Shown here piece by piece: positions 1 through 62,803 of a stretch of 64,000 nt of DNA. Source of the DNA: SAR324 cluster bacterium SAR324-CTD7B (GTDB taxonomy: Bacteria; SAR324; NAC60-12); NCBI GenBank assembly GCA_002082305.1, contig LSNO01000093.1:1337-65336 (forward strand), given 5' to 3'. How positions within the stretch are numbered: position 1 is the stretch's first letter; each line of letters opens with the position of its first letter. The notes beneath the pieces were generated by a model. The model saw only the letters and a list, made by a program, of their open reading frames with translations. It was not told where the DNA came from and did no database searches. A program made the position numbers and the translations under genes.

Positions 1-1341
1 GTCGTCACGGGAACTGTGCTCAGCGGAACCGTTAGACAAGATGAGGAAATACTGCAATATCCACAACGGCGGAACGTACGTATTCGAGGATTGCAGAACC
101 ACGGCCAGGAAGTCAAAGAGATTAATGCAGGACAGAGGGCCGCCCTGAATTTAGCAGGAATCGCCAAAGAAGAAATTCAGCGTGGTGACCAGTTGGCGCA
201 TCCGGAATCATTACTGAACAGTTATTTGCTTAATGTGTCATTGACTCTGTTGGAAGACGTTTTAGCCCCACTGAAAAACAGGACCCGTGTTCGCGTTCAT
301 CTTGGCAGCAAGGAAGTTTTTGGACGAATTGCTTTGTTGGAAGGTGAAACTTTGTCTCCTGGAAAAACAGCGCTGGTTCAATTACGTTTGGAAAGTTTGG
401 TAAGCGGTAGTTATGGAGACCGATTTATCGTCCGGAGTTATTCACCAATGATTACCTTAGGTGGAGGAATGGTGATTGACCCTTCTCCCGGTAAATCCAG
501 GAGAGTACAGCACGAACTTCCTGAACGGCTGGAACGTCTTCATGTTGGTGATGAAAATATTCGATCTGAAGAAGTGATCTATTTGCAGTCTGTTCGGGGA
601 GTAACTGAGTCTGAATTTTCGGTTCGTACCGGCCTTTCCAGCAGGCAGTCCGGAAAAGCTTTGCAGCTTTTGCAAAGTCAGCAGAAAGTACTTTGTGTTG
701 AACCTCTCACAGGACGTTATCTGCATGTGGAGCATATTGTGCGAATCGGCAAATTTTTGAGCAAAGCGTTGGAGCAGCATCACAAAAAATTCCCTGATCG
801 CGATGGGATGACCCGTTCTGAACTTGGTGGTAAACTTTCCTTGATTTTTACAGAAAAAGAGGTTGAAAAACTGCTAAAATATCTGGTGAAGGTTGGTCTG
901 TTTACACAAAATGATCAGTATATTTCCTTAGCAGAACATCAGCCGCAGGCATCACAAAGCAGGGAAGACAGTCTTGCACGCTGCCTTGAATTGATTAAGT
1001 CCGGTGGTTTTCAACCTTTACGCCGTACACATTTACTCCAGGAACTGGGTTTAAACGAAAAGGATGGAATGACATTACTCAAATCTGCAGCACATTCAAA
1101 ACGACTTGTACGGGTTGCAGAGGATTTACACTATATTCCAGAGCAAATTGCATCAATTATAGAAAGTCTGCGGTTTTATTTTAGTGAAAATCCAAACATT
1201 ACTGTAATCCAATTCAAAGAATTACTAAACATTTCTCGCAAACATGCAATTGATTTGTTAGAGTATTTTGACAGTCAACAGCTCACAATTCGGGAAGATA
1301 ACCACCGAATTCCGGCCAGAATTACAGCTTTAAACAATTAA
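1..1341 (+). CDS. selB: Selenocysteine-specific elongation factor SelB (5'-truncated by window edge)
   Basis: Frame is open from base 1 (VVTGTVLSG). Contains EF domain II/III motifs (GQRAALNL, GDRFIVRSYSP..TLGGG) and a C-terminal winged helix SRKHAIDLLEYFD typical of SelB. Confidence 0.93.
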   Translation, partial: VVTGTVLSGTVRQDEEILQYPQRRNVRIRGLQNHGQEVKEINAGQRAALNLAGIAKEEIQRGDQLAHPESLLNSYLLNVSLTLLEDVLAPLKNRTRVRVHLGSKEVFGRIALLEGETLSPGKTALVQLRLESLVSGSYGDRFIVRSYSPMITLGGGMVIDPSPGKSRRVQHELPERLERLHVGDENIRSEEVIYLQSVRGVTESEFSVRTGLSSRQSGKALQLLQSQQKVLCVEPLTGRYLHVEHIVRIGKFLSKALEQHHKKFPDRDGMTRSELGGKLSLIFTEKEVEKLLKYLVKVGLFTQNDQYISLAEHQPQASQSREDSLARCLELIKSGGFQPLRRTHLLQELGLNEKDGMTLLKSAAHSKRLVRVAEDLHYIPEQIASIIESLRFYFSENPNITVIQFKELLNISRKHAIDLLEYFDSQQLTIREDNHRIPARITALNN

Positions 1342-11066: not shown

Positions 11067-12356
<1,290 letters not shown>

Positions 12357-12401
12357 CCGCAAGTCTGCCGGGGTCGTGATTCTGAACCCAATCTGTCAAC
12401 A

Positions 12402-14000
12402 TTGAACCACTTGACATTCATTCCTTTGAAAAACAATCCTGAGGAGTCCGGACGCATTCTGAAAAACGCGCGGACGGTTACAATCTTTACCCTTTTTTCA
12501 CGAATCCTGGGTGCAGCGCGGGATTTAGTGATTGCGCATGTCTTTGGTGCCGGTTGGGTGACGGATGCTTTTGTGCAGGCTTTTACAATTCCGAATGTCC
12601 TGCGCCGCCTGACTGCAGAGGGTTCGATGACTCTTGCTTTTCTTCCTCTCTACACAGAAATCCGTGAACGCAAGGATCCTGAAGCTGCAAAGAAATTTGC
12701 GGCAAAAACTTTAGGGCTCGTCCTGGCAGCAACAACTATTCTGACCGGCTTGGGAATTCTTTTCAGTCCTCAGTTGGTTTATCTGTTTGCGGCAGGTTTT
12801 GCTTCAAGTCCGGAAAAATACGACTTGACGGTGCTGCTGACCAGAGTCATGTTTCCATATTTGATTTTTGTTTCGCTCGTTGCCTGGGCAATGGGGGTAC
12901 TCAATGCCGAAGGCCGTTTTGCAGCTCCGGCTGCAGCACCGATTTTATTAAATATCGGAATTATCGGGGCAGCATTCGGTATTTCTCCATTGTTGGAAGA
13001 ACCGATGATCGGCATCGGTATCGGTGTTCTTCTGGGTGGAATCGCGCAAATATTAATTCAAATACCCTCACTGAGAAAAGTTGGGCAATCCTTCAAACCG
13101 CAAAATTTTCTCAATGATGAGAATATTCAGCGCCTGCTGAAACTGCTTGGTCCGTCTTTGCTGGGAGTGGCGGTCTATCAAATCAATATCATTGTGCTGC
13201 GCAACCTCGCCAGTTTCATGCCCACAGGGCAAGTCACGCATTACTACAATGCCAGCCGACTCTCGGAACTGACTTTGGGTGTATTTGCTTTTGCAATCAC
13301 TTCAGCCGGCTTTCCGGAATTAAGTCAGCACACTGCTGCCAAAAACTGGGAGAAAATCCGCAACACCCTGCGCTTTACCATGTCCACAACTTTACTGGTC
13401 ATCTTTCCGGCCAGCGTGGGTTTGGCGGTTGTTGCAGAACCGATTGTGTCAATGCTATATCTGCATGGAGCGTATGCATGGAGCGACGTTCAAAATACCT
13501 CGCTCACGCTGCAGGCTTTTGCATTGAGTATTCCTGCGGTAGCAATGATTCGGTTGCAGACTTCAGTGTTTTTTTCACTTAAAGATACCCGCACTCCGGT
13601 CAAAGTTTCAATGTTCAGTATTTTGCTGACAGGGCTTCTGGGTTGGTGGTGGAGTCAAAGCCTGGAAATATTTGGCCTGGCCCTGGGGCTTGCTGCAGGA
13701 ACCTGGTTTCAGTGGATTCTGTTGTCGCTCTTTTTGCTCAAGCAATCCGAATTACGTAAAAATTGGTGGCCCCTGCGGTCGTCTTTGCTTTATATGCTGG
13801 CTTCAGCAGGAATGGGAGGTTTTGCCTGGTATTACAGAGGATATGGATCATGGGAAAACGGACCTTTTCTTGTTTACAACTGGGTGATTTTTGGAGGAAT
13901 ACTGCTTGGTTCAGCCTTGCTTTACGGATTATTGCTTTTAGTTTTCAGGGAAGAGCAAGTGCTGAGATTGAAAAACCATATGCTACAAATTAACACCTAA
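12402..14000 (+). CDS. murJ: Lipid II flippase MurJ (MviN)
   Basis: SRILGAARD..A..FGAG..TDAF..AF.IPN.LRRL.AEG motif and about 14 TM helices. Confidence 0.95.
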   Translation: MNHLTFIPLKNNPEESGRILKNARTVTIFTLFSRILGAARDLVIAHVFGAGWVTDAFVQAFTIPNVLRRLTAEGSMTLAFLPLYTEIRERKDPEAAKKFAAKTLGLVLAATTILTGLGILFSPQLVYLFAAGFASSPEKYDLTVLLTRVMFPYLIFVSLVAWAMGVLNAEGRFAAPAAAPILLNIGIIGAAFGISPLLEEPMIGIGIGVLLGGIAQILIQIPSLRKVGQSFKPQNFLNDENIQRLLKLLGPSLLGVAVYQINIIVLRNLASFMPTGQVTHYYNASRLSELTLGVFAFAITSAGFPELSQHTAAKNWEKIRNTLRFTMSTTLLVIFPASVGLAVVAEPIVSMLYLHGAYAWSDVQNTSLTLQAFALSIPAVAMIRLQTSVFFSLKDTRTPVKVSMFSILLTGLLGWWWSQSLEIFGLALGLAAGTWFQWILLSLFLLKQSELRKNWWPLRSSLLYMLASAGMGGFAWYYRGYGSWENGPFLVYNWVIFGGILLGSALLYGLLLLVFREEQVLRLKNHMLQINT

Positions 14001-49832: not shown

Positions 49833-51905
49833 ATGCCTGAACATTCATTCACCAACAAGTTGATAAACGAAAAAAGCCCGTACCTATTACAGCATGCGCA
49901 CAACCCGGTAAACTGGTACCCCTGGGGCCAGGAAGCCTTTGAGAAAGCAAAAAGTGAAGACAAGCTGCTGCTGGTCAGCATCGGTTATGCAACCTGTCAC
50001 TGGTGTCACGTGATGGAGCGCGAGTCGTTTGAAGATCCAGAATTGGCTCTATATCTTAACAAGCATTTTGTACCAGTGAAAGTAGACAGAGAGGAGCGCC
50101 CTGATGTGGACAAAATCCACATGGATGCACTACACGCCCTTGGTCAGCAGGGAGGATGGCCTCTGAATATGTTTTTGACTCCGGAAGGAAAGCCTGTTAC
50201 GGGGGGCACTTATTTCCCTCCGAAACCAATGTATGGGCGAAAATCCTTCCGTGAGCTGCTGGAAAACTTAGTCTTTATTTGGGAAAATGAGCGCGAAAAA
50301 ATTTATTCCACTGCTGATGAAATTACTTCTCATTTACAGCAACAAGCTGTTCCATCTTATAACGGACTACCTGAACTGAATTGGGAGGTGGAAGAGAAGG
50401 CGGTTGCACAATTTCGGGAATCGTTTGATTCACGGCACGGTGGTTTCAATCAGCAGCTTCAAAACAAGTTTCCGCCTAGCATGGGATTGATGCTTTTGCT
50501 TCGTCACTATGACAGAACAGGTAACGCAATGTCACTGGAAATGGTGGAAAAGACTTTACAAAAAATGTTTGCCGGGGGAATTTATGATCAACTTGGCGGT
50601 GGACTGAGTCGCTACAGTACCGATTATGAGTGGCTGGTTCCGCATTTTGAGAAAATGCTTTATGATAATTCTCTGTTTATCTGGGCTTTGATAGAGACTT
50701 TTCAAGTTACCAGGAATCCACTTTATGAAACAGCGGTGCGGGATGTTCTGACTTATGTTGCACGGGATATGACTTCTCCGCAGGGAGCATTTTTTTCTGC
50801 GGAAGATGCGGATAGCGAGGGTGTTGAAGGGAAATTTTATCTCTGGTCAAAAGCAGAAGTAACGGAAATTTTAGGTGCTGAAACTGGAAAGCTGGCCTGC
50901 GCATATTGGGATATTACGGAGAAAGGAAATTTTGAGAGCAGCAACATTCCGAATCGTCCAATGTCCGATGAAGAAGTTGCAGAGCAATTCAGTATCACTA
51001 CTGAAGAGATGCAGGTTCAACTCCGGGCTGCACGGGAAAAGTTGCTTGCAGTTCGTTCACAACGTATTCGTCCTCTATTGGATGACAAAGTACTTACATC
51101 CTGGAATGCCTTGATGATTTCTGCTTTTGCTCGGGCAGCACGGGTATTTGATGATACTGATTTTGAAATGAGGGCAGTGCGTGCGGCTGACTTTATTTTC
51201 GAAAATCTACGGGACGAGTCTGGACGCTTGCTCCGGCGATGGCGTGACGGAGAGGCTCGTTATCCGGCTTATCTCTGTGATCATGCTCAACTTGCTGCTG
51301 CTTGTCTGGATCTTTACGAAACCACCTACGATCCTGAATGGTTCCGGAAAGCTGTTGAATTATCTCAGGGAATCAATCGTCTGTTCCGGAACGATGACGG
51401 TCCATATTATGATACTGGAATAGATGGTGAAACCCTGTTAACCCGTAATGCAGAAGGCTATGATGGTGTGGAACCTTCGGGAAACAGCAGTGTGACAAAT
51501 GCATTTTTGAGGCTTCGCTCTTATGGTTTGTCCCCTGAATTTTACAGCGATGCTCAACGAATTTTAAGAAGTTTTGCTCCCCATCTGAAACAGGCCGGAG
51601 TCAGCTTTTCAGCAATGCTTGGTGCCCTGCATTTCAGCCTTTCTGAACCGAAAGAGATTATCATTTCCGGAAGACGTGGTGATCCTGAGACAGAAGCTTT
51701 ACTGAAGGAAGTACGTAGTGAATTTCATCCGAATATAGTAGTGGCCTTCGTTGAAAACGGAGAGAGTCCGGAAACAGAAAAAATCATCCCGCTGGCTTCC
51801 GGAAGAGTAATGGTAAATGAACGTGCGACCGCTTATGTTTGCCAAAATCAAACCTGTCAATTGCCGGTCCATTCAATTAAAGAGTTGCGGAAACTTTTGA
51901 ACTGA
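49833..51905 (+). CDS. YyaL/DUF255 thioredoxin-domain plus alpha/alpha-barrel protein
   Basis: [45 protein letters not shown]. Confidence 0.92.
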
Positions 51906-52108: not shown

Positions 52109-52924
52109 GTGGCGTCGCACGTAGCTGAGGGCAGTCAAAGGGGCTATATTATACCGATAGGGGGGGCTGAAAATAAAAGGAGAAAGCCTCTTATTTTGCA
52201 AAAGTTTGCCGAACTATGCGGAGGTAAAAACGCTCGTCTGGCAATTATTCCGACTGCCTCAAAACTCAAAGAAACTGGCCAAAATTACATTGATATTTTC
52301 AGGGACATAGGGGTTGATTACTGTGTAAGTCTCCCGATTGAAGAACGCTCTGACAGCGAATGTGTAGAATATCTACAAGAACTCAATGAAGCGAGTGGGA
52401 TTTTTGTGACAGGAGGCAATCAGTTACGTTTGTCCACTATTATGGGTGGTACTCCCGTTGCGCAGGCAATTCGACGAAGAAATGCGGTTGGTGTTCACTT
52501 TGCCGGAACTTCTGCGGGCGCGGCAATAATTCCGGAACATATGATCGCAGGGGGTAAGGCAGGGCCAACTCCACGTGAAGGCGGGGTGATCTTTGCTCCC
52601 GGACTGGGATTGACAAACAAGATAGTGGTAGATCAGCACTTCCGGCAGCGAGACCGTTTAGGCCGGCTGCTTTCTGCAGTGGCTTTCAATCCGTTTGCAA
52701 CCGGAATCGGTATTGATGAAAACACTGCAGCCTTTATTGATCCGGAAGGTATGTTGGAAGTTGTAGGTTCTGGTGCAATTACCGTTGTTGATCCCAGCGA
52801 ACTGTCTCATTCTTCTATGGAATCAGAAAACAGAGGAAAGGCCATTAACCTGACCAATTTACGATTGCATCTTTTAACAAGTGGTGCAAAATACGATATC
52901 AATTCCAGGCAGGTTTTTAAATGA
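52109..52924 (+). CDS. cphB: Cyanophycinase (peptidase S51)
   Basis: IGGAE, IPTAS, TGGNQLRL, GTSAGA nucleophile, DQHF.QRDR.GRL, GIDENTA. Adjacent to cphA. Confidence 0.93.
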   Translation: MASHVAEGSQRGYIIPIGGAENKRRKPLILQKFAELCGGKNARLAIIPTASKLKETGQNYIDIFRDIGVDYCVSLPIEERSDSECVEYLQELNEASGIFVTGGNQLRLSTIMGGTPVAQAIRRRNAVGVHFAGTSAGAAIIPEHMIAGGKAGPTPREGGVIFAPGLGLTNKIVVDQHFRQRDRLGRLLSAVAFNPFATGIGIDENTAAFIDPEGMLEVVGSGAITVVDPSELSHSSMESENRGKAINLTNLRLHLLTSGAKYDINSRQVFK

Positions 52925-52967: not shown

Positions 52968-55775
52968 ATGAAGATTCTTTCAACCAATGTTTTTCAAGGT
53001 CCAAGCTTGTATGCCCATTTCCCGGTGATTAGACACGTTTTGGATTTAGGAGTGCTTGAAGAATGGCCCTCCACGCGTATTGGGCAGGATTACGTTGATC
53101 AGTTAGTTGAAATACTGCCGGGACTGAAAGAACATGGATGCTCCTATCGTATTCCCGGTGGGTTCATTCGTCGATTACGTGAAGATGATGGTACATGGAT
53201 GGGACACATCATGGAGCATGTTGCTTTGGAACTGCAGGGCATTGCAGGGTCTGAGGTAACATTTGGCCGCACCCGCTCCACAGGCAATCCCGGCGAATAT
53301 AACATGGTGTTCCAGTACATGCAGCGGGATGTAGGCTTGAAAGCCAGTGAACTCGCACTGAGGTTGCTTCTGTGTCTGCTTCCGGACTCACTCAAAAAAC
53401 AACTGGATACTCCCCCTTCTGCTGATTTTAATTTTGAAGAGGAGCGCGATGCTTTCATTCGCTTTGCACAGCGTCATGAATTTGGACCCAGTACAGCCTC
53501 TTTAGTCAATGCTGCCAAAGAGCGTGGAATTCCATACCTGCGACTGAACCGGTTTAGCCTTGTGCAGTTTGGTCATGGAAAATATCAACGCCGAATACAG
53601 GCCACAATCACCAGTGAAACTCGGCAGATTGCTGTAGTCATTGCCGGTGATAAAGAAGAAACCCACACCATACTGTACGATCTTGGCCTGCCCACCACCA
53701 TGCAGCGTCTGGCCTATAGTGAAGAGGAAGCGGTCAGTCAAGCAGAAAATCTTGGATTCCCTGTGGTTGTGAAACCACTCGATGGCAACCATGGACGTGG
53801 CGTCTCGATCAATCTCATTAGCGATGAGCAAGTTGTATTGGGTTTTAATGAAGCTCGTGCCCAAAGCAATAACGAGGCGATCATTATCGAAAATTACGTT
53901 ACGGGTTTTGATCATCGAATGCTGGTGGTCAACGGAGAGTTGGTTGCCGTTTCCAAACGTGTTCCGGGACACGTAGTAGGCGATGGAGAAAAAACTATTG
54001 AGGAACTGGTGGAAATTGTCAATAGTGATCCTCGCCGTGGAATTGGTCACGAAAAAGTACTGACTCGTCTGAAGTTTGATGAGCAGGCGGAAAGACTGAT
54101 GAAAAAATCTGAATACAGCAGTCAAACAGTTTTAACCAAGGGTGAAATTTTTTACCTGCGTTCCACAGGGAATCTATCAACTGGTGGTACAGCGATTGAT
54201 TTGACAGATGTAGTGCATCCTGATAATCGAGAAATGGCTGTAAGAGCAGTAAAATCTATTGGGTTGGATGTAGGTGGAGTTGATTTTCTGACGGACGATA
54301 TCACCCAGTCTTACAAGGATATTGGCGGCGCCATTGTTGAAGTTAACTCTGCTCCCGGATTCCGTATGCATGTAGCTCCCAGCGAAGGTAAACCGCGTGA
54401 TGTCGCAACCTCTGTAATGGACATGCTGTTTCCACCAGGATCTCCCAGTTGTATACCGATTGCCGCTATTACAGGAACTAACGGAAAAACCACTACTGCC
54501 AGGATGCTTTCATATATCATGAAGACCAGCGGGAATACAGTGGGAATGACTTCCACAGATGGGGTTTATATAGATGGTCACCTGACTGTAAAAGGTGACA
54601 TGACCGGTCCAGTTTCCTCTCAAATGGTACTCCGTGATCCATCGGTAGATGTAGCAGTGATGGAAGTTGCCCGTGGTGGAATGCTGAAGAAAGGAGTTGG
54701 ATTCCCCAAATGTGATGTGGCAGCATGCCTCAATGTTTCTGCAGATCACCTCGGACTAAGAGGCATTGATACCGTAGAACAACTTGCTCGAGTAAAGCGC
54801 ATTATTATTGAAATTGCCACTGATACTGCAGTACTAAATGCAGACGATTCACTTTGTCTGGAAATGGCAAATCATACCAAGGCGGAAAATATTTGTTATG
54901 TAACTTTAGCTGACAATCATCCTCTGGTGCGTAAACACATCCGTGCTGAAGGCAGGGCGGTAGTGCTGGAAAAGGGGCTCAATGGAGACATGATCACACT
55001 TTACGATAAGGGCGCTCATATTCCTTTGCTCTGGACACACCTGATTCCGGCAACTTTGGAAGGCAAAGCAGTACATAATGTTCAAAATGCAATGTTTGCC
55101 GCAGCTCTCTCCTTCAGCATGGGAGTGCCATTGGATGACATCCGTCATGGATTGCGTACCTTTAACACTACTTTCTTCCAGGCTCCGGGACGCATGAATA
55201 TTTTTGATGATCATCCATTTAAAGTTATCCTGGATTATGCCCATAACCCTGCAGCTTTCAAGGGTATGTGTCACCTGGTATCACGCATGGAAACTCCTGG
55301 AAAAAATATTTGTGTGATTTCCATGCCCGGTGATCGGCGTGATGAGGACATTCAGGAAGTTGGAAAAACTGTCTCTGGAGTTTTTGACCATTTTATTTGT
55401 AAAGCAGATGATGATCGCCGAAAGCGGGGTTATGACGAAATACCAAAAATGCTCCGGAAAATCCTGCTGAAAAATGGTGTTTCTGAAGACTGTATTGATG
55501 TGGTTCCGGATGAAGTTGAATCAATTCATCGGGGGTTGACTCTGGCTCAGCCAGGTGATTTACTGATGGTGTTTGGAGATAATGTCTCCCGCAGTTGGAA
55601 ACAGATTGTCCACTTTAACGAAGATTTAGAGTTACCGAGTATCCAGCCAAAACAGCAACCCAAAGAGGAGGATTCAGTTGAGGCCTTTGTTGAACCATTT
55701 ACTATGGTGGCCGGACAACGTATTATTCAAGATGAACGGGGAGTACGTCTTGCCAGTGAAGAGGAAGCGGATTGA
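52968..55775 (+). CDS. cphA: Cyanophycin synthetase (CphA1, all three domains)
   Basis: N domain HGCSY..GGF..GHIMEH. ATP-grasp KPLDGNHGRGV, NLSTGG, EVNSAPGFRMH. Mur-ligase GTNGKTT, ARGG, DHLG, DYAHN. Confidence 0.96.
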   Translation: MKILSTNVFQGPSLYAHFPVIRHVLDLGVLEEWPSTRIGQDYVDQLVEILPGLKEHGCSYRIPGGFIRRLREDDGTWMGHIMEHVALELQGIAGSEVTFGRTRSTGNPGEYNMVFQYMQRDVGLKASELALRLLLCLLPDSLKKQLDTPPSADFNFEEERDAFIRFAQRHEFGPSTASLVNAAKERGIPYLRLNRFSLVQFGHGKYQRRIQATITSETRQIAVVIAGDKEETHTILYDLGLPTTMQRLAYSEEEAVSQAENLGFPVVVKPLDGNHGRGVSINLISDEQVVLGFNEARAQSNNEAIIIENYVTGFDHRMLVVNGELVAVSKRVPGHVVGDGEKTIEELVEIVNSDPRRGIGHEKVLTRLKFDEQAERLMKKSEYSSQTVLTKGEIFYLRSTGNLSTGGTAIDLTDVVHPDNREMAVRAVKSIGLDVGGVDFLTDDITQSYKDIGGAIVEVNSAPGFRMHVAPSEGKPRDVATSVMDMLFPPGSPSCIPIAAITGTNGKTTTARMLSYIMKTSGNTVGMTSTDGVYIDGHLTVKGDMTGPVSSQMVLRDPSVDVAVMEVARGGMLKKGVGFPKCDVAACLNVSADHLGLRGIDTVEQLARVKRIIIEIATDTAVLNADDSLCLEMANHTKAENICYVTLADNHPLVRKHIRAEGRAVVLEKGLNGDMITLYDKGAHIPLLWTHLIPATLEGKAVHNVQNAMFAAALSFSMGVPLDDIRHGLRTFNTTFFQAPGRMNIFDDHPFKVILDYAHNPAAFKGMCHLVSRMETPGKNICVISMPGDRRDEDIQEVGKTVSGVFDHFICKADDDRRKRGYDEIPKMLRKILLKNGVSEDCIDVVPDEVESIHRGLTLAQPGDLLMVFGDNVSRSWKQIVHFNEDLELPSIQPKQQPKEEDSVEAFVEPFTMVAGQRIIQDERGVRLASEEEAD

Positions 55776-55801
55776 AAACCCCACTATTACTGTAAGCAAT
55801 C

Positions 55802-57550
55802 TTGGTGAAACTAACACTCGAAAGCTGTCGCCGTTTAACGGGTCCAAGTCTGTATTTCCAGAATCCTGGAACTGTACTTGACGTTTTTGTTTCCGGGGTT
55901 AGGTTGGAAGATGTTGTGGCATGCTGGCAGGAAGAAGTTAATAAATTACGGGAGGCAGTCTCTTGGAAACTGTCACCCTTGCATGTCAGGGAAACACATC
56001 CACAGGGAGCGAGTTTGGCCTTCAATGCGTCTATGGACCTGGTTTACTCTGCATCTGAACTTAATGAAGCAGCTTGGAACAACTCAGTCGCACGGCTTTA
56101 TGGTGAAGTTCCTGAAGACTTCGATGGTATTGTATCAAAACTCAAAGCGCAAATAGAGCAGGAAAGCAACCCAGTCCTGCTAAAACTTAATGAGGCGGCA
56201 AACAAAAAAGGCATTCAACTACTGTCTGATGACGAAACCCTTACACTTGGCCTTGGAGTTGGCTCACAAAGCTGGTCTTTAAGGGAGCTTCCCAGTCCGG
56301 ATGAGGTGGATTGGAATGCTCTCCACAACATCCCCGTAACACTTATCACCGGAACTAATGGCAAATCTACCTCCGGTAGAATGCTAGCTGCTATTGTCAG
56401 TGCTGATGGGAAAACTCCTGGACTGACTTCTACCGACTGCATCCAGGTCGGAACTGATATTCTAGATACAGGAGATTATTCCGGACCGGGGGGAGCACTC
56501 GCGGTACTGAGTGATAAACGTGTGGAATTTGGTGTGCTTGAATCAGCGCGTGGCGGCATTCTACGTCGGGGGCTGGGAGTGACTCAGGCTCAGGCCGGAA
56601 TTATTACTAATGTAGCTGAAGAGCATTTGGGCGAATATGGTGTCCGGAGTCTCGCCGACCTTATAGATGTAAAATTTACAATCCTACGTCCTCTTGAAAT
56701 ATTCGGGGGCATGCTGGTTCTCAATGCAGACGACGAAGGACTGGTGGAATACGCCAAAAATTTAAACCATCCTTTGTGTTGGTTCAGTCTGGAGAAAGAC
56801 TCTCATATCCTGTATGAACACCGGAAACAGGGAGGTCCCATTTGTTATGTTGAACAGGGAAAAATATATTTTCTGCATCACGATTCTGTCCAATTCATCC
56901 TGAATGTGAATGAAATTCCGATTACTCTAAATGGTGCTGCACGTTATAATGTAGCCAATTCTCTCGGTGTTATTGCTTTGGCCAAAAATTTGGGTTTCTC
57001 AAATGAAGTGATTGCAGGAGCACTTAAGAGCTTTCAGGGTGACCTCAAGGATAATCCCGGGCGAGGCAATTATCTGACACTTCCTCTTCCCAAACCAAAT
57101 CGTTCTCAAAATTCAACAGAGGAGCAATCCTTTCAGGTGTTGATAGATTTTGCACATAATGCACACGGATTGAGTGCAATTTGTGAAACTCTCATCAGGC
57201 TTCCTGCAAAACGAAGGCTGGTTGTGGCTGGTCATGTTGGCAGCCATAGCGACGAAGAAATACGGGAAATGACTCGTGTGGTTGCCAAAATCAAACCGGA
57301 ATATTTTTATTCTCCTGAAATGCTGGATTATTTACGGGGGAGAAAAGCAGGAGAAATCTCCAAATTGGTTTTTGATGAATTACGGCAACTGGGATATGCT
57401 GAAGAAAAACTCAGCACGGCTAACACTTGCCTGGAGGCTGTAAAATCTGCAGTTGAGCATGTTCAAGCGGGCGACCTGCTGATGCTGGTTGGTCTTGACG
57501 AGCGAAAAGAAACTCTTGCTTATCTTGAAGAACTTAAATTGCAAATATAA
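55802..57550 (+). CDS. CphA-related Mur-ligase protein lacking the ATP-grasp domain
   Basis: N-terminus RRLTGPSLY..VLD resembles that of CphA. It jumps straight to IPVTLITGTNGKST, ESARGGILRRGLG, EHLG, NADD, PGRGN, DFAHN. Confidence 0.8.
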   Translation: MVKLTLESCRRLTGPSLYFQNPGTVLDVFVSGVRLEDVVACWQEEVNKLREAVSWKLSPLHVRETHPQGASLAFNASMDLVYSASELNEAAWNNSVARLYGEVPEDFDGIVSKLKAQIEQESNPVLLKLNEAANKKGIQLLSDDETLTLGLGVGSQSWSLRELPSPDEVDWNALHNIPVTLITGTNGKSTSGRMLAAIVSADGKTPGLTSTDCIQVGTDILDTGDYSGPGGALAVLSDKRVEFGVLESARGGILRRGLGVTQAQAGIITNVAEEHLGEYGVRSLADLIDVKFTILRPLEIFGGMLVLNADDEGLVEYAKNLNHPLCWFSLEKDSHILYEHRKQGGPICYVEQGKIYFLHHDSVQFILNVNEIPITLNGAARYNVANSLGVIALAKNLGFSNEVIAGALKSFQGDLKDNPGRGNYLTLPLPKPNRSQNSTEEQSFQVLIDFAHNAHGLSAICETLIRLPAKRRLVVAGHVGSHSDEEIREMTRVVAKIKPEYFYSPEMLDYLRGRKAGEISKLVFDELRQLGYAEEKLSTANTCLEAVKSAVEHVQAGDLLMLVGLDERKETLAYLEELKLQI

Positions 57551-57551
57551 A

Positions 57552-59048
57552 ATGTCTCAAACCAAAAAAGTCGATCTCATTCTGCGCAACGCCCGAATAA
57601 TCGATGGTACAGGCGGGCCCTCTCAATACGGCGACGTGGCAATCCAAGACGATCGTCTGCTGGCAGTGGGTGAAACAGGTAATATTCAGGCAAGTCGTGA
57701 ACTTGATGTGGGAGGAAAAGTGGTTTGTCCCGGTTTTGTTGATAGCCATACTCACGATGATCGATTGTTACTCTCTGATCCAAACATGAGTTGTAAGGTT
57801 AGCCAGGGTGTAACCACTGTGGTTGCCGGAAACTGCGGGATAAGTCTCGCACCATTGCAAATAGATCATCGGCCTCCTCCTCCGCTAGATGTGCTGGTTA
57901 AACACCAGGATCAATTCTTTAGCGGCTTTGGCACATACCTCCAGACATTAGCCGAAGAACCTCCTTCACTCAATGCTCTTTGTCAGGTGGGTCACACTAC
58001 ACTTCGGGCAGCTGTCATGGATTCTTATGATCGTCCTGCAAATGCAGAAGAAGTAAGTAAAATGCGAAAAATGCTGGAGGATTCTCTGGAAGCTGGAGCC
58101 TGTGGAATGAGTACCGGGCTTTTTTATGCACCCGCAAACGCAGCGCCAACTTCGGAGGTTATCGAACTCGCCCGCGCTTTGCATGAACACGGGGCTTTTC
58201 ACACGACTCACATGCGGGACGAAGGCGAAGGGGTTGCCGATTCGTTGCGTGAAACATTCACTATTGGAGCCGAAGCAGAAATTCCAGTGGTGATTTCACA
58301 TCACAAATGCAGCGGTGCCCCCAATCACGGCCGTTCGTTGGAAACTTTAGCCCTGATTGATAAAGCAAGAAAGGTTCAAGCTTTAGGACTTGATGCTTAT
58401 CCCTACACAGCCAGTTCGACTGTTCTTTCAGCCTATCGAAATTTCGAAGCAAAGAAGGTGTTGATAACTTGGTCGGAGCCGATGCCGGAATATGCAGGGA
58501 GAGAGCTCTCTGAAATCGCCAAGGAACTAGGAATGAGCGAGAAAGAGGCCGTGGAAGCCCTGAATCCTGGAGGTGGAATTTTTTTCATGATGGATGAAGA
58601 AGACGTACAACGCATCCTCGCCTTTCCACAAACCATGATCGGCTCGGATGGTCTGCCCTCCGATACGCACCCTCATCCACGGCTTTGGGGAACTTTCCCA
58701 CGGGTCTTGGGACACTATGTCCGGGAGGTCAAGCTGTTCAGTCTCGAAGAGGCAGTGCGCAAAATGACATCCCTGCCGGCAGCCTGTTTTGGTCTCAAGG
58801 AACGGGGAATACTTAAGCCTGGAAACTATGCCGATTTGGTTATTTTTGATCCGGATACCATTGTGGACAGTGCAACTTTTGATGACCCTGTTCGTCCTGC
58901 ACAGGGCATTGAACAAGTTATGGTCAACGGTCGAGTGGTATGGAAAGATGGTGAACACACTGGCGATCGTCCTGGCCGGGCCCTGCGTCTTCAAGATTTG
59001 GCACCATTTCGTTTTGATGCGCACCCTGAAAACGTTTCTTCAATCTAG
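57552..59048 (+). CDS. N-acyl-D-amino-acid deacylase (amidohydrolase)
   Basis: IIDGTG, PGFVDSHTHDD, GNCG, THMRDE, SHHK, GSDG, PHPRLWGTFPR. ATG is 1 nt after the upstream stop. Confidence 0.9.
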   Translation: MSQTKKVDLILRNARIIDGTGGPSQYGDVAIQDDRLLAVGETGNIQASRELDVGGKVVCPGFVDSHTHDDRLLLSDPNMSCKVSQGVTTVVAGNCGISLAPLQIDHRPPPPLDVLVKHQDQFFSGFGTYLQTLAEEPPSLNALCQVGHTTLRAAVMDSYDRPANAEEVSKMRKMLEDSLEAGACGMSTGLFYAPANAAPTSEVIELARALHEHGAFHTTHMRDEGEGVADSLRETFTIGAEAEIPVVISHHKCSGAPNHGRSLETLALIDKARKVQALGLDAYPYTASSTVLSAYRNFEAKKVLITWSEPMPEYAGRELSEIAKELGMSEKEAVEALNPGGGIFFMMDEEDVQRILAFPQTMIGSDGLPSDTHPHPRLWGTFPRVLGHYVREVKLFSLEEAVRKMTSLPAACFGLKERGILKPGNYADLVIFDPDTIVDSATFDDPVRPAQGIEQVMVNGRVVWKDGEHTGDRPGRALRLQDLAPFRFDAHPENVSSI

Positions 59049-59226: not shown

Positions 59227-60195
59227 ATGCCGACAAAAGACGATCTCACGTATCCTGTTTCGCTGACACCACCGGATATTTCCGCCTATCGAGCAGGAAA
59301 TATTGGCGTGGAATATGTCCATCAATTTGATTCAGGAAAACCGGGTCCACATGTGATGATCAGCGCGGTGGTGCATGGAAACGAGTTATGTGGTGCTATA
59401 GCTGTGGATCATCTCCTGAAAAACGAAGCGCGTCCTCTTCATGGAAAACTGACTATGGCTTTTATGAATGTGGAGGCATTCCTCAGATTTGATCCGGAAA
59501 ATCCCACCGCGTCCCGGTATGTTGATGAAGACTTTAACCGACTTTGGACTACAGAAGTTTTAGATGGGAATCGTGACAGCGTCGAATTAAGAAGAGCCCG
59601 TGAATTGCGTCCAATTGTGGATACCGTTGATTTTTTGCTGGACATCCACTCCATGCAAACCGTAACCCCACCATTAATGATGGCCGGGCCACTTTCTAAA
59701 GGACGGAGATTTGCTGAACAGATTGGTATTCCTGAAACAGTTATCACGGATTCCGGACACAAAGCTGGACGTCGGATGCGTGACTACGAAGGATTTTCTG
59801 ATCCGGACAGTCCAAAAAATGCTTTGCTTGTTGAATGCGGACAGCACTGGGAAAAAAGCAGTTCTGAGTTAGCAATCACCTCTGCTTGGCGTTTCCTTAG
59901 TATTCTTGGTGTAATTTTGGCAGAAACAGCTGCACCTCATTTACGTGTTTTGTCTCCGACTAAACAACACTTCGTTGATGTTTCCGGACCGTATACCATC
60001 CAGACTGATTCGTTCCAATTTGTCGAACCGTTTGTCGGACTTGAGGTGATTCCTGCTGCAGGAACTATTATCGGTCACGATGGGGACGACCCGGTAAAAA
60101 CACCGTACAATAACTGCGTCCTCATCATGCCTTCCCGTCGACAGTTGCGGGGGGATTCGGCGGTTCGTTTCGGAAGGTTTTTAGACATGGCCTGA
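59227..60195 (+). CDS. Succinylglutamate desuccinylase/aspartoacylase (M14) family hydrolase
   Basis: VHGNE, DFNR, LLDIHS, VECGQH zinc-carboxypeptidase motifs. Confidence 0.88.
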   Translation: MPTKDDLTYPVSLTPPDISAYRAGNIGVEYVHQFDSGKPGPHVMISAVVHGNELCGAIAVDHLLKNEARPLHGKLTMAFMNVEAFLRFDPENPTASRYVDEDFNRLWTTEVLDGNRDSVELRRARELRPIVDTVDFLLDIHSMQTVTPPLMMAGPLSKGRRFAEQIGIPETVITDSGHKAGRRMRDYEGFSDPDSPKNALLVECGQHWEKSSSELAITSAWRFLSILGVILAETAAPHLRVLSPTKQHFVDVSGPYTIQTDSFQFVEPFVGLEVIPAAGTIIGHDGDDPVKTPYNNCVLIMPSRRQLRGDSAVRFGRFLDMA

Positions 60196-60229: not shown

Positions 60230-61687
60230 ATGCTACGCACAGGAAACGAATACCGCGAATCTATCAGGGACGGACGCGAAATCTGGATTGACGGAGAGCG
60301 CGTCCACGACATGACCACCCATCCGGCTTTCAAACCGATTATTGACGTGCGGGCAAGGATGTACGATATGGCTCATGAAACTCAATATCAAGCTCAGTTG
60401 AGTTATCAAGATGCAGAAACCAAAGAACTCAATACCACTTTTCATAAACCGCCCCGAACTCCTGAAGATTGGCAGGAAAAAGATGCGGCTTTGGATGCCG
60501 TGATGAAAGACATCGGCGGCGTGGTGATTCGCGTGAGTGATGAATCGGTTGGAGAAATGTGGTCGCTTTACGATGGTCAGGAAATGCTCAATGAGGTCGA
60601 TCCGCAGTTTGCGAAAAACATTGAACAGCATATTCTCCGGACAACCCGCGAAGACCCTTTTCACGTTTCGGCCAATACCGATCCCAAAGGCGACCGCTCC
60701 AAAACGCCGCAGGAGCAAGACCCGGATATGTTACTGCACGTCGTCAAAGAAACCGATGCAGGGATCATTGTGCGCGGTGCAAAATTTGAAACGGCGGCGT
60801 CCTATGCCAATCAAGCTTTTGTCAAACCGACCATTGCCGGATGGGCCGGAAACGAAAAACTTTCGGATTATGCGGTCAGTTTTATTTGCGATATGGGTGC
60901 TTCCGGACTCAAACACATTTGCCGGAGCGGATTCGCCGGACGCTTGCCGATCGAAGATTATCCGCTGGCCAACCGTTTTGATGAAGTCGATACTTTGCTG
61001 GTGTTTGATAATGTTTTGATTCCGTGGGAAAATGTGCTTTTTTATCGCCACACCAAAGCGGCGGCGTTTATCCGCGCCACGCTTCACCGTTACAGTGCTT
61101 ATCCTTTTGTGATGCGTCTGCGTTATGTTGCGGACATGATCATCGGAGCCGCACTTTTCAATGTCAAACAAACCGGACTCGACAAAAATCAGGCAGTCCG
61201 CGAAAAACTGGCCACACTCGCCTGTTACCGCGAAGGAATTCACGCCCATCTCACGGCTTCGATTGCGTTGGCGGAAAAAAGCCCCGGCGGTTTGCTGATG
61301 CCAAACCAATCACTACTTTACACCGGACGAATTCACGCGTGTTCCGGACTTCCGGAAATGATACATTTAGCGCGTGAACTTTGCGGCGGACAAATTTGCA
61401 TCACGCCCAACCATGCCGCATTTCAAGATACCGATTCCGGACAATGGCTGGAAAAATACTACACCGTTAACGAAAACTGGATTGCGGAAGACCGCCGGAA
61501 ATTGCTGGCTTTTGCCCGTGATTTACTCAATTCCGATTATGCCGGACATCGTTTGACTTTTCAGTTGTTTGCGCAGTCTCCGCCTTTTGCGCATCTGAAT
61601 GCAGTCTATAACAATTTCGATTTTTCCGGGCCGCTGGATTTTGTCCGTAATGCCGCCGGATTGTCGGAAAAAGTGATGAAAACTTGA
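60230..61687 (+). CDS. 4-hydroxyphenylacetate 3-hydroxylase family flavin-dependent monooxygenase (oxygenase component)
   Basis: RTG.EYRESIRDGR.IWIDGE, HPAFK, TDPKGDRS, GIIVRGAK, RFDEVD..VFDNVLIPWE. Confidence 0.9.
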   Translation: MLRTGNEYRESIRDGREIWIDGERVHDMTTHPAFKPIIDVRARMYDMAHETQYQAQLSYQDAETKELNTTFHKPPRTPEDWQEKDAALDAVMKDIGGVVIRVSDESVGEMWSLYDGQEMLNEVDPQFAKNIEQHILRTTREDPFHVSANTDPKGDRSKTPQEQDPDMLLHVVKETDAGIIVRGAKFETAASYANQAFVKPTIAGWAGNEKLSDYAVSFICDMGASGLKHICRSGFAGRLPIEDYPLANRFDEVDTLLVFDNVLIPWENVLFYRHTKAAAFIRATLHRYSAYPFVMRLRYVADMIIGAALFNVKQTGLDKNQAVREKLATLACYREGIHAHLTASIALAEKSPGGLLMPNQSLLYTGRIHACSGLPEMIHLARELCGGQICITPNHAAFQDTDSGQWLEKYYTVNENWIAEDRRKLLAFARDLLNSDYAGHRLTFQLFAQSPPFAHLNAVYNNFDFSGPLDFVRNAAGLSEKVMKT

Positions 61688-61700
61688 AAAGGAACATTTG

Positions 61701-62117
61701 ATGGCACACCAACGAATCAGAAAATTCAACACCAAAGACACTTATCCGGATCAGGATTTGGATAATGATTTGTGTCAAGTGGTACGCGCCGGAAACACGC
61801 TTTATTTGCGTGGACAAGTCGGCACAGATTTTGACGGAAATCTCATTGGTTTCAATGACCCCGAAGCTCAAACCGAACAAGCGATGAAAAATGTCAAACA
61901 ACTTTTGGAAGAAGCCGGAAGTTGTCTCGATCATGTTTGTAAAATCACGATTTATTTGACGAGCAGGGAAATTCGAGAAGCCGTTTATCGCACGGTCGGC
62001 AAATGGCTCAAAGGCGTGTTTCCGGTTTCAACCGGAGTCATTGTGGCAGGGTTGGCAAAACCGGAATGGTTGCTGGAAGTAGATGTGATTGCCGTAATAC
62101 CGGAGGAGGACAAATGA
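61701..62117 (+). CDS. RidA/YjgF family protein
   Basis: LRGQVG, QTEQAM.N..LLEEAG, PVSTG..V.GLA.PEWL.EVD. Confidence 0.9.
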   Translation: MAHQRIRKFNTKDTYPDQDLDNDLCQVVRAGNTLYLRGQVGTDFDGNLIGFNDPEAQTEQAMKNVKQLLEEAGSCLDHVCKITIYLTSREIREAVYRTVGKWLKGVFPVSTGVIVAGLAKPEWLLEVDVIAVIPEEDK

Positions 62118-62803
62118 CGCTTTCCATTGTCGGACGCTGTCCGGAAACAGGGATGCTCGGCGGATCAATCACTTCATCAAGCATTTGCGTGGCGAGTCGT
62201 TGTTTGTTCACGCGTTCCGGAGTTGGTGCGGCACTGTCGCAAAATGTCACGGATCCGCGTTTGGGAATCCGGATGCTCGATTTGCTGGAATCTCGCACCG
62301 GACGTTCCGGGGGAGCAGACGTAAACACGGCGATTTCCCAAGTTGTAGCGGAGGCAAATCACATTGAATGGCGGCAACTCGTGCTTTTGGATTCTTCCGG
62401 AAAATCAGCCATTCACACCGGAGAAAAGGCATTGGGCCGAAACGCTTCCGCACAAGGAAATCAGTGCGCCGCCGCCGCAAATCTTTTGGCAAATGAAGAA
62501 GTTCCGCAAACAATGGTGACCGCTTTTGAACAAAGCTCCGGACATCTCGCACAAAGGCTTATCACCGCTCTCGAAGCCGGAATTGCCGCCGGTGGCGAAG
62601 AAGGGCCGGTGCGTTCTGCCGGAGTGCAGGTCGTTCATAAAGTTTCGTGGCCCGTCGTTGATTTGCGGGTTGATTGGGACGAAAATCCGCTTCCCAAACT
62701 GCGCACCATTTGGAACGAATATCAACCGCAACTCGAGCCCTATGTCACCCGCGCCCTCAATCCGGAAGCCGCTCCGTCTTATGGTGTTCCGGGGGATTTG
62801 TGA
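62114..62803 (+). CDS. DUF1028 (Ntn-hydrolase-like) protein
   Basis: MTLSIVGRC..TGMLG, GVGA..SQN, WRQ, AGGE.GP..SA, DLRVD. ATGA overlap with the RidA gene. Confidence 0.88.
   Translation: MTLSIVGRCPETGMLGGSITSSSICVASRCLFTRSGVGAALSQNVTDPRLGIRMLDLLESRTGRSGGADVNTAISQVVAEANHIEWRQLVLLDSSGKSAIHTGEKALGRNASAQGNQCAAAANLLANEEVPQTMVTAFEQSSGHLAQRLITALEAGIAAGGEEGPVRSAGVQVVHKVSWPVVDLRVDWDENPLPKLRTIWNEYQPQLEPYVTRALNPEAAPSYGVPGDL

Follow-up and report, generated by a model that had tools for sequence, protein, structure and literature searches.

A cyanophycin synthetase paralog without the ATP-grasp domain is encoded beside cphA1 in a SAR324 bacterium and in other bacterial phyla

Results

The cyanophycin gene cluster of SAR324 cluster bacterium SAR324-CTD7B was analysed in a stretch of 64,000 nucleotides (nt), referred to here as the window, which spans positions 1,337 to 65,336 of contig LSNO01000093.1 (assembly GCA_002082305.1). 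The cluster begins with cphB (52109..52924, + strand), coding for a cyanophycinase of 271 amino acids (aa), as identified with Pfam Peptidase_S51 (88 bits) and NCBIfam TIGR02069 (257.5 bits against a cutoff of 126.6). Downstream of it lies cphA1 (52968..55775, + strand), which encodes a full-length cyanophycin synthetase 1 of 935 aa with N, ATP-grasp G and Mur-like M domains; the Cx21HxxEH motif is present, and the TIGR02068 score is 1112.7 bits (cutoff 850). The third gene, here called X (55802..57550, + strand), starts 26 nt after the cphA1 stop with a TTG codon and encodes a 582-aa CphA1 paralog without the G domain, as assigned by Pfam, BLASTP and a structure model. A first-pass annotation, made by reading the sequence, had described this paralog; its open reading frame (ORF), the gap and all of the quoted sequence strings were confirmed. 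As relatives start with MKLTLES, the true start of X may be the GTG at 55805 instead of the TTG at 55802. The metagenome-assembled genome (MAG) containing the window is 87.7% complete and has one X and one CphA1.

Both Mur_ligase_M (PF08245; residues 182-394, 76.2 bits, cutoff 24) and Mur_ligase_C (PF02875; residues 434-564, 40.2 bits, cutoff 28.4) were detected in X above their gathering scores, which makes it a member of the Mur ligase superfamily. The neighbouring CphA1 matched Cyanophycin_syn, RimK/ATP-grasp, Mur_ligase_M and Mur_ligase_C. No ATP-grasp family was found in X by Pfam at E ≤ 0.01, so that a G domain like that of CphA1 is lacking. The distance from the NPVL motif to the strand preceding the P-loop is 54 aa in X and 323 aa in CphA1, and about 270 aa of ATP-grasp domain are missing, as had been noticed at first pass. 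The TIGR02068 profile matched X with 323.8 bits (cutoff 850) over profile positions 477-860 only, below the level required of a cyanophycin synthetase equivalog, and PRK14016 gave 276 bits versus 877. The M domains of the two neighbours are clearly homologous: BLASTP aligned X 177-580 with CphA1 496-889 (30% identity, E 2e-50), and hhalign aligned the Mcore region of X with CphA1 489-867 (probability 100, E 3.5e-76, M-domain identity 30-31%). The curated models for MurE, MurC, MurD, MurF and FolC scored X far below their cutoffs, the best being the MurE model NF001126 (86.4 bits versus 373), and no Mur-ligase N-terminal catalytic or UDP-substrate domain was found by Pfam. X therefore does not qualify as a peptidoglycan Mur ligase (MurC/D/E/F).

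Four regions were delimited in X. Residues ~1-106 (55802..56119, + strand; boundaries approximate) are predicted to adopt the CphA1-type N-domain fold without the HxxEH metallopeptidase motif, with model residues 4 onward aligning to residue 1 onward of the CphA1 chain. Residues ~107-175 (56120..56326, + strand) form a linker whose probable counterpart in CphA1 is the tail of the N domain plus the opening ~50 residues of the G core (NPVLLKLNEAANKKGI.. resembling GPSTASLVNAAKERGI..), judging from a weak collinear hhalign alignment (X 107-160 with CphA1 154-212) and the secondary structure of the model; the Gcore range was taken from PMC9427784. The Mcore occupies residues ~176-415 (56327..57046, + strand) and is defined by Mur_ligase_M and the hhalign alignment to CphA1 489-867; it contains the P-loop GTNGKST (184-190), T211, E247 within ESARGG (247-252), E274-H275 within EEHLG (273-277), K291 and NADD (308-311). 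The Mlid (residues ~416-582 and the stop codon; 57047..57550, + strand), defined by Mur_ligase_C and the alignments, contains NPGRGN, DFAHN (449-453), GSHSD in place of GDRSD, and LRGR, together with a clade-specific insert of 14 aa at residues ~428-441 that was seen in the family alignment. The NPVL motif is at residues 123-126, and AANKKGI, TLGLG and GHVGSHSDEE also occur in X; the window CphA1 has SMPGDRRDED.

No HxxEH motif was present in residues 1-110 of X, in agreement with the first-pass view that the priming site is lost, and C58, H80, E83 and H84 are kept in 17 of the 17 X-linked CphA1s that were aligned. The same annotation had called the N-terminus CphA-like. This held insofar as GPSLY occurs in both proteins and the structure model agrees. 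It did not hold as significant sequence likeness: Pfam PF18921 gave no match to the X N-terminus at E ≤ 0.01, and an hhalign alignment of the N-terminal parts was collinear (X 4-160 with CphA1 1-212) with a probability of 4.7% only. The likeness of the N domain therefore rests on the structure model. Eight N-terminal residues of X (R10, T13, G14, W42, W55, G69, D79 and W92) are invariant in a 34-sequence alignment of the family.

An AlphaFold2 model of X was built from this 34-sequence alignment without templates, and had a mean pLDDT of 93.3 and a pTM of 0.91. When the model was compared with the PDB by Foldseek, the nine best matches were all CphA1 chains, followed by MurE and other Mur ligases, and the TM score normalised to the query was 0.82 for TeCphA1 (7wae_A). 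In VIA-align comparisons with CphA1 (Z 35-40), 551-556 residues of the model (4..581) were superposed on SuCphA1 1..872 with a root-mean-square deviation of 3.6-5.4 Å, and residues 4..414 matched 7wae_C 1..724 over 407 residues at 3.0 Å (Z 40); peptidoglycan Mur ligases gave Z values of 20-26, the best being Z 26. A CphA1-type N domain packed against the Mcore is thus present in the predicted structure. As the model superposes on CphA1 over ~550 of the 582 residues, X is predicted to be a CphA1 from which the G domain has been cut out, its N and M domains being placed relative to each other as in the native enzyme. Domain mapping by Pfam and AlphaFold, as suggested at first pass, accordingly returned Mur_ligase_M and Mur_ligase_C within a CphA1-like N plus M model. 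When X was paired with residues 155-495 of CphA1 (its G domain) in a complex prediction, the score was 0.02 against a mark of 0.32, which speaks neither for nor against binding.

In a joint alignment of the M domains of 75 X and 73 CphA1 sequences, 51 positions had one and the same residue in both groups, at a conservation of 90% or more. They include T183, G184, N186, G187, K188 and T190 of the P-loop; T211/D212; GD..GP; E247/A249/R250/G251/G252; N270; D274/H275; K291; N308-D311; N383; N386; P419/G420/R421; D449/H452/N453; G480/R482; R512/R514; and D558. All Mur-ligase motifs are thus retained, as had been annotated, and the M domain of X is intact by the standard of CphA1 (P-loop, T211, E247, H275, K291, NADD, R421 and DxAHN). 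Residues needed for M activity or for Mg/ATP binding in CphA1 (TeCphA1 K499, T500, T522 and E558, SuCphA1 D585/H586; PMC9427784 and PMC9262961) have their equivalents among these conserved positions; mutation of K499 or of the D585/H586 pair kills the M domain of CphA1 according to the same papers. Only two positions were conserved in both groups with different residues: T269 in X versus L588 in CphA1, and W327 versus Y644. The M motifs of the partner CphA1s were invariant, which rules out that X complements a defective partner M domain.

A putative amino-acid pocket different from that of CphA had been proposed from the sequence. The difference was found in the genus-level clade of the window, where GSHSD, EEHLG and the 14-aa insert are common to 5 of the 5 members in the alignment. 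It does not extend to the family, in which 29 of the 34 aligned members have a GDR motif, mostly GDRSD, similar to the GDRRDED of CphA1; DHLG is present in 28 of the 29 GDR-type members, the other (P0032) having EHLR.

Linkage of X to cphA had been named at first pass as a test of the annotation, and it was found to be strong. A scan of GTDB species genomes yielded 79 loci, in which ORFs were called and scored with the window proteins, X being defined by a match to the X N-terminus without a G domain. Of these loci, 73 were counted as X-bearing; six were dropped, namely L069 and L074 (an X-like ORF directly after a full cphA1, with no significant N-terminal match), L076 (a fragment) and L077-L079 (CphA1 only). 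The cphA1 gene was beside X in 68/73 loci. A full cphA1 with the G domain was immediately upstream on the same strand in 58/73, and in 8/73 cphA1 was within 2 kb in another arrangement (divergent, convergent, separated from X by one gene, frameshifted, or masked by an ORF that had been called too long). The contig end truncates cphA to a fragment in 2/73, and there was too little upstream DNA in 4/73. In the remaining locus (L052), where X itself is cut by the contig end, no cphA1 was present in the 10 kb upstream. At one Thermoanaerobaculia locus (L017), the cphA convergent with X (11723-13534, - strand) has an ORF of 603 aa with a weaker G-domain match, and may be a truncated or mis-assembled synthetase.

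The cphB gene was present in 61/73 X-bearing loci. When the remaining neighbouring ORFs were clustered, the sole real recurrent family was an amidohydrolase of ~390 aa upstream of cphB, found in 26/73 loci. Three representatives, directly upstream of cphB (L004 4839-6011, L009 5176-6336 and L035 5074-6267), were identified as the beta-aspartyl peptidase IadA (362-417 bits, TIGR01975 cutoff 331); the gene has the same position in 23 further loci. The common operon is therefore (iadA-)cphB-cphA1-X, and cphB-cphA1-X was present in 5 of the 5 same-genus loci. Of 400 species genomes sampled evenly from the Gammaproteobacteria, with a centre genome chosen for having X and three candidates scored per genome so that the counts are floors, at least 18 had a CphA1-type M domain and at least 5 had X, the centre genome included; each of these 5 X genes lies directly beside a CphA1. 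In the Ruegeria genome of locus L013 (G042), a second CphA1-type gene (C20:61509-62663, open frame of 893 aa) has no X-type match beside it, so one genome can hold both an X-linked and an X-free cphA1.

A word-index search retrieved many relatives of X of 560-590 aa with 40-73% identity over 98-99% coverage, from SAR324, Deltaproteobacteria, KSB1, Pseudomonadales, Emcibacteraceae, Alcanivoracaceae, Halieaceae and Thermoanaerobaculia; those with a name are called 'Mur ligase family protein', 'cyanophycin synthetase' or 'UDP-N-acetylmuramyl tripeptide synthase' in databases. The ESM Atlas matches were 'Mur ligase family protein' clusters only. The N-terminal 175 aa of X were searched against 1.84 billion representatives of 50% identity clusters, and matched 462 clusters at E ≤ 0.001, 232 at E ≤ 1e-10 and 6 at E ≤ 1e-30. 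The best 150 matches always began near residue 1; the full-length proteins among them measured 553-620 aa, with one of 757 aa, the others being metagenomic fragments, and no protein of CphA1 length was among these 150. X thus belongs to an unnamed family of N-M CphA paralogs of ~560-600 aa whose genes adjoin cphA1. The 79 loci came from Gamma-, Alpha- and Betaproteobacteria, Bacteroidota, Rhodothermales, Planctomycetota, Acidobacteriota, Gemmatimonadota and Myxococcota, and included cultured Ruegeria, Sulfitobacter, Roseovarius, Gemmobacter, Colwellia, Lysobacter and Luteimonas. X was present in 7 of 17 other genomes of the window genus, each time with CphA1, and neither gene was found in 23 genomes from other genera of the same family and order, which suggests that the cphA1-X cluster was acquired as a whole.

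The ratio of non-synonymous to synonymous substitution rates (dN/dS; Nei-Gojobori, 15 pairs among six genomes of the window genus) was 0.064-0.133 for X, 0.035-0.064 for cphA1 and 0.041-0.086 for cphB, values that are rough because dS was mostly above 1. Purifying selection clearly acts on X, about half as strongly as on cphA1, and no relaxed selection was apparent. In a FastTree phylogeny of 150 M domains, rooted on the other Mur ligase of the MAG with a very long outgroup branch, 76 X and 73 CphA1 rows formed two separate clades; labels were corrected and four ambiguous rows reassigned on phmmer evidence, and nearly all CphA1 rows were X-linked. SH-like support was 96-99 for the core X clades and 69/76 for the basal split. 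Across 65 loci, X and its partner CphA1 M domain had correlated patristic distances (Spearman 0.71; 0 of 500 permutations as high), a correlation that may come partly from shared species history. Distances were 2.5-fold larger for X.

Logan contigs from RNA-seq metatranscriptomes (four runs, four studies) covered most of the cluster, and two RNA-library contigs (55700-55977 and 55653-56053) bridged the cphA1/X junction with 0 differences each. Parts of X had no cover in two of the four runs.

Downstream of X, a D-aminoacylase homolog (57552..59048, + strand) was identified by phmmer against Alcaligenes D-aminoacylase (PDB 1m7j; E 2.8e-169, query 27-500). Its likely ATG, at 57552 and in frame, lies 1 nt past the stop of X; the ORF start as listed (57489) would make the gene overlap X by 62 nt and is probably too early. 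A co-occurrence of X with this gene, which the first-pass annotation had suggested surveying, was not borne out: the gene follows X in one of five same-genus loci (G003 only), and among 79 loci from other phyla there was a weak amidohydrolase match in 3 and no close D-aminoacylase homolog, which rules it out as a conserved partner of X. About 70 nt after the X stop, at ~57619, there is a breakpoint of strain variation, where one RNA-library contig continues with 134 letters unlike the window and another starts exactly. As the contigs break there, the D-aminoacylase gene is consistent with an insertion that is absent from related strains.

The next gene (59227..60195, + strand) encodes an AstE/AspA-family (M14-like) hydrolase (Pfam AstE_AspA_cat, 54.7 bits), and a gene of this kind follows X in one of five same-genus loci (G017 only). 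The family includes the cyanophycin dipeptidase CphZ (PMC9974463), and the gene sits where some cyanophycin clusters carry CphZ; iadA is absent from the cluster of the MAG. A phmmer search of the PDB gave no CphZ match up to E 10 and weak aspartoacylase matches only, so its identification as CphZ is not supported; the protein is a possible distant beta-Asp-Arg dipeptidase. With each of the two genes following X in a single same-genus locus, both are variable add-ons and not conserved partners.

Discussion

Cyanophycin is a nitrogen-storage polymer, and its metabolism is usually described in terms of CphA1 or CphA2, cyanophycinase and a dipeptidase (IadA, IaaA or CphZ). X represents a third architecture in the cyanophycin synthetase family, which is widespread, visible in databases and functionally uncharacterised. 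Like CphA1 (SuCphA1 7LG5/7LGQ, TeCphA1 7WAE), it has the N-domain fold and an M domain made of Mcore and Mlid in the same relative arrangement, is encoded in the same gene cluster, and shares the 51 conserved M positions with their ATP/Mg-binding and catalytic motifs. Unlike CphA1, it has no ATP-grasp G domain, of which only the first ~50 Gcore residues are left as a linker, so that X cannot extend the Asp backbone. It also lacks the CxnHxxEH peptidase site of the N domain, which generates primers (PMC9262961), and the tryptophan needed for tetramers is not conserved. CphA2, too, is a CphA1 paralog reduced to a single catalytic domain, and its N domain has no peptidase activity; in it the loss went the other way, the G domain being active and the M domain truncated and inactive (PMC10273328). 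X, with a complete M domain and no G domain, is not a CphA2 and is its architectural mirror image, as the first-pass annotation had put it. CphA2 is described as a specialised cyanobacterial enzyme (PMC9262961), whereas X occurs in Pseudomonadota, Bacteroidota, Acidobacteriota, Gemmatimonadota, Planctomycetota, Myxococcota and SAR324. The Mur ligases MurE, MurC, MurD and MurF, and FolC, have in common with X the Mur_ligase_M and Mur_ligase_C domains and the motifs of ATP-dependent acyl-phosphate ligases, with structural Z values of 20-26. They differ in that a CphA1-type N domain replaces the UDP-binding domain in X, and in that the context of X is cyanophycin metabolism and not the dcw cluster.

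The reading that we prefer, tentatively and in the knowledge that it could well prove wrong, is that X is an active, free-standing N-M module which ligates Arg or a similar amino acid to the Asp beta-carboxyls of cyanophycin in trans. An ancient CphA1 paralog would have lost the ATP-grasp domain while retaining the N domain, which holds the polymer, and the Mur-ligase M domain, and would have been inherited beside cphB and cphA1 in one gene cluster. X would bind the cyanophycin chain between its N domain and Mcore, use ATP to phosphorylate a free Asp beta-carboxylate, and join the alpha-amino group of a basic amino acid to the Asp, with Arg as the default candidate and Lys as a possibility. 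It would thereby perform the M-domain half-reaction in trans on the product of CphA1, either to speed up arginylation or to fill Asp residues that CphA1 left bare. Enzymatic activity, cyanophycin as the acceptor and the amino acid that is added are what we infer here. N plus M is a complete unit for the M-domain reaction of CphA1, and a free-standing M half-reaction is the most economical reading because this unit and all of the catalytic residues are kept, X is co-inherited with cphA1 and cphB, and the gene is under purifying selection; architecture, conservation of catalytic residues, linkage and selection are all directly supported. For the family at large the substrates are probably those of CphA1, since GDRSD prevails outside the window clade and only two jointly conserved M positions differ.

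Several observations weigh against this reading. CphA1 alone makes cyanophycin in heterologous hosts (PMC9262961, Table 1) and the M domains of the 17 aligned partner CphA1s are apparently intact, which makes the need for a second M module questionable. X is dispensable, as 13 of the 18 CphA1-bearing Gammaproteobacteria in the sample are without it. The homology of its N domain is not significant by sequence, its rate of evolution is about 2.5 times that of the partner M domain, and the correlation of its distances with those of CphA1 may partly reflect species history. The evidence for expression of X is a weak hint, as RNA-library contigs can contain DNA and do not prove transcription or a single transcript. 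The window copy carries further changes: D274E and R482H, common to its clade, fall at positions invariant in CphA1 (100%) and conserved to at least 85% within the X family, and R233L and R237S, in the window X alone, affect X-specific arginines that are conserved to 85-95% or more. On account of these four substitutions, the window copy may have a different substrate or lower activity.

The clade-wide changes bear on the first-pass idea that X adds a different residue, possibly a D-amino acid. A tailoring role, in which X attaches something other than L-Arg (Lys, Orn, citrulline or a D-amino acid) and thereby alters the polymer composition, at least in the window clade, is unlikely, though it is the alternative that fared best. 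D274E, the change from GDR to GSH (R482H) and the 14-aa Mlid insert in 5/5 clade members are in its favour, as is the D-aminoacylase homolog directly after X, and CphA1 enzymes are known to incorporate Lys (PMC8050183). It is opposed by the GDRSD found outside the window clade, by the near identity of the jointly conserved M positions, and by the restriction of the D-aminoacylase to one of five same-genus loci. The idea is thus conceivable locally, in the window genus, and is not borne out for a family that mostly has GDRSD.

The presence of synthetic and degradative genes in one operon would suit a non-catalytic or regulatory partner, with X binding cyanophycin or CphA1 and setting chain length, granule formation or a switch between synthesis and degradation, ATP binding serving as a sensor. 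The faster evolution of X also fits, and CphA2 sets a precedent for a non-catalytic domain in this family (PMC10273328). Retention of all M catalytic motifs across phyla, with 51 shared conserved positions, is unexpected for a pure binder. The tryptophan that SuCphA1 needs for tetramers (W672, PMC9262961; W689 in the window CphA1) aligns to non-conserved residues of X. On balance such a role appears rather improbable.

We regard it as still more doubtful that X is a primer or dipeptide synthetase, joining free Asp or very short oligomers with Arg into beta-Asp-Arg or primers of the (beta-Asp-Arg)-Asp type and so bypassing the slow start of CphA1. The first, primer-independent steps of CphA1 are reported to be very slow, with (beta-Asp-Arg)-Asp being the smallest primer (PMC9262961), and an M module freed from tetramer geometry could admit small substrates. 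Against this, the aligned X-linked CphA1s all keep their own CxnHxxEH primer-generating site, and X keeps, in the model, the whole polymer-tethering N-domain fold, which small substrates would not need. An unrelated Mur-type ligase for cell wall, folate or another peptide, merely located beside cphA1, is suggested by database names such as 'UDP-N-acetylmuramyl tripeptide synthase' and is close to refuted by the low scores of the Mur and FolC models (e.g. 86 versus 373), the lack of a Mur-ligase N-terminal catalytic domain, nearest structures that are CphA1 and not MurE, and the presence of cphA1 beside X in 68/73 loci.

Going further, X could be a third functional class of the CphA family, acting in trans as a side-chain (isopeptide) ligase for the editing or repair of cyanophycin during or after its synthesis by CphA1. 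The altered pocket of the window clade (GSH for GDR, E274, 14-aa insert) would then attach a non-Arg residue, and variable downstream deacylases (the D-aminoacylase homolog and the AstE/AspA-like protein) would recycle the unusual dipeptide. This extended proposal is speculative and, taken as a whole, improbable.

To the usual set of genes, X adds a fourth that is strongly conserved in many cyanophycin operons outside the cyanobacteria; of the sampled Gammaproteobacteria with CphA1, about a quarter have it. Should X prove to ligate side chains in trans, it would explain how bacteria control the completeness or composition of the polymer, it would provide a natural stand-alone M module with which the two half-reactions of CphA1 could be studied separately, and it might serve as a tool for cyanophycin variants. 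BLAST-based surveys of cphA may count X genes as synthetases.

The first-pass statement that this architecture had not been characterised agrees with our literature searches, in which no published characterisation was found. No G-less CphA paralog was encountered in full-text searches; the older surveys of Krehenbrink (2002) and of Fuser and Steinbuchel (2007) may mention such genes, and are said to have noted second 'cphA-prime' genes. In the available parts of a 2023 survey of gene clusters (PMC10206079) and of PMC9974463, PMC9262961, PMC9427784, PMC10273328 and PMC10687191, such a paralog is not mentioned. 'Cyanophycin ligase-like proteins' are named in the supplements of a 2013 genome paper (PMC3646047).

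Flanking genes

A DUF255/thioredoxin-domain (DsbH-like) gene (49833-51905, + strand) lies upstream of cphB in the window and has the same position in G003. The cluster is followed by an HpaB-family 4-hydroxyphenylacetate 3-hydroxylase-like gene (60230-61687, + strand) and a DUF1028 gene (62003-62803, + strand), both of which are also found downstream of X in G017.

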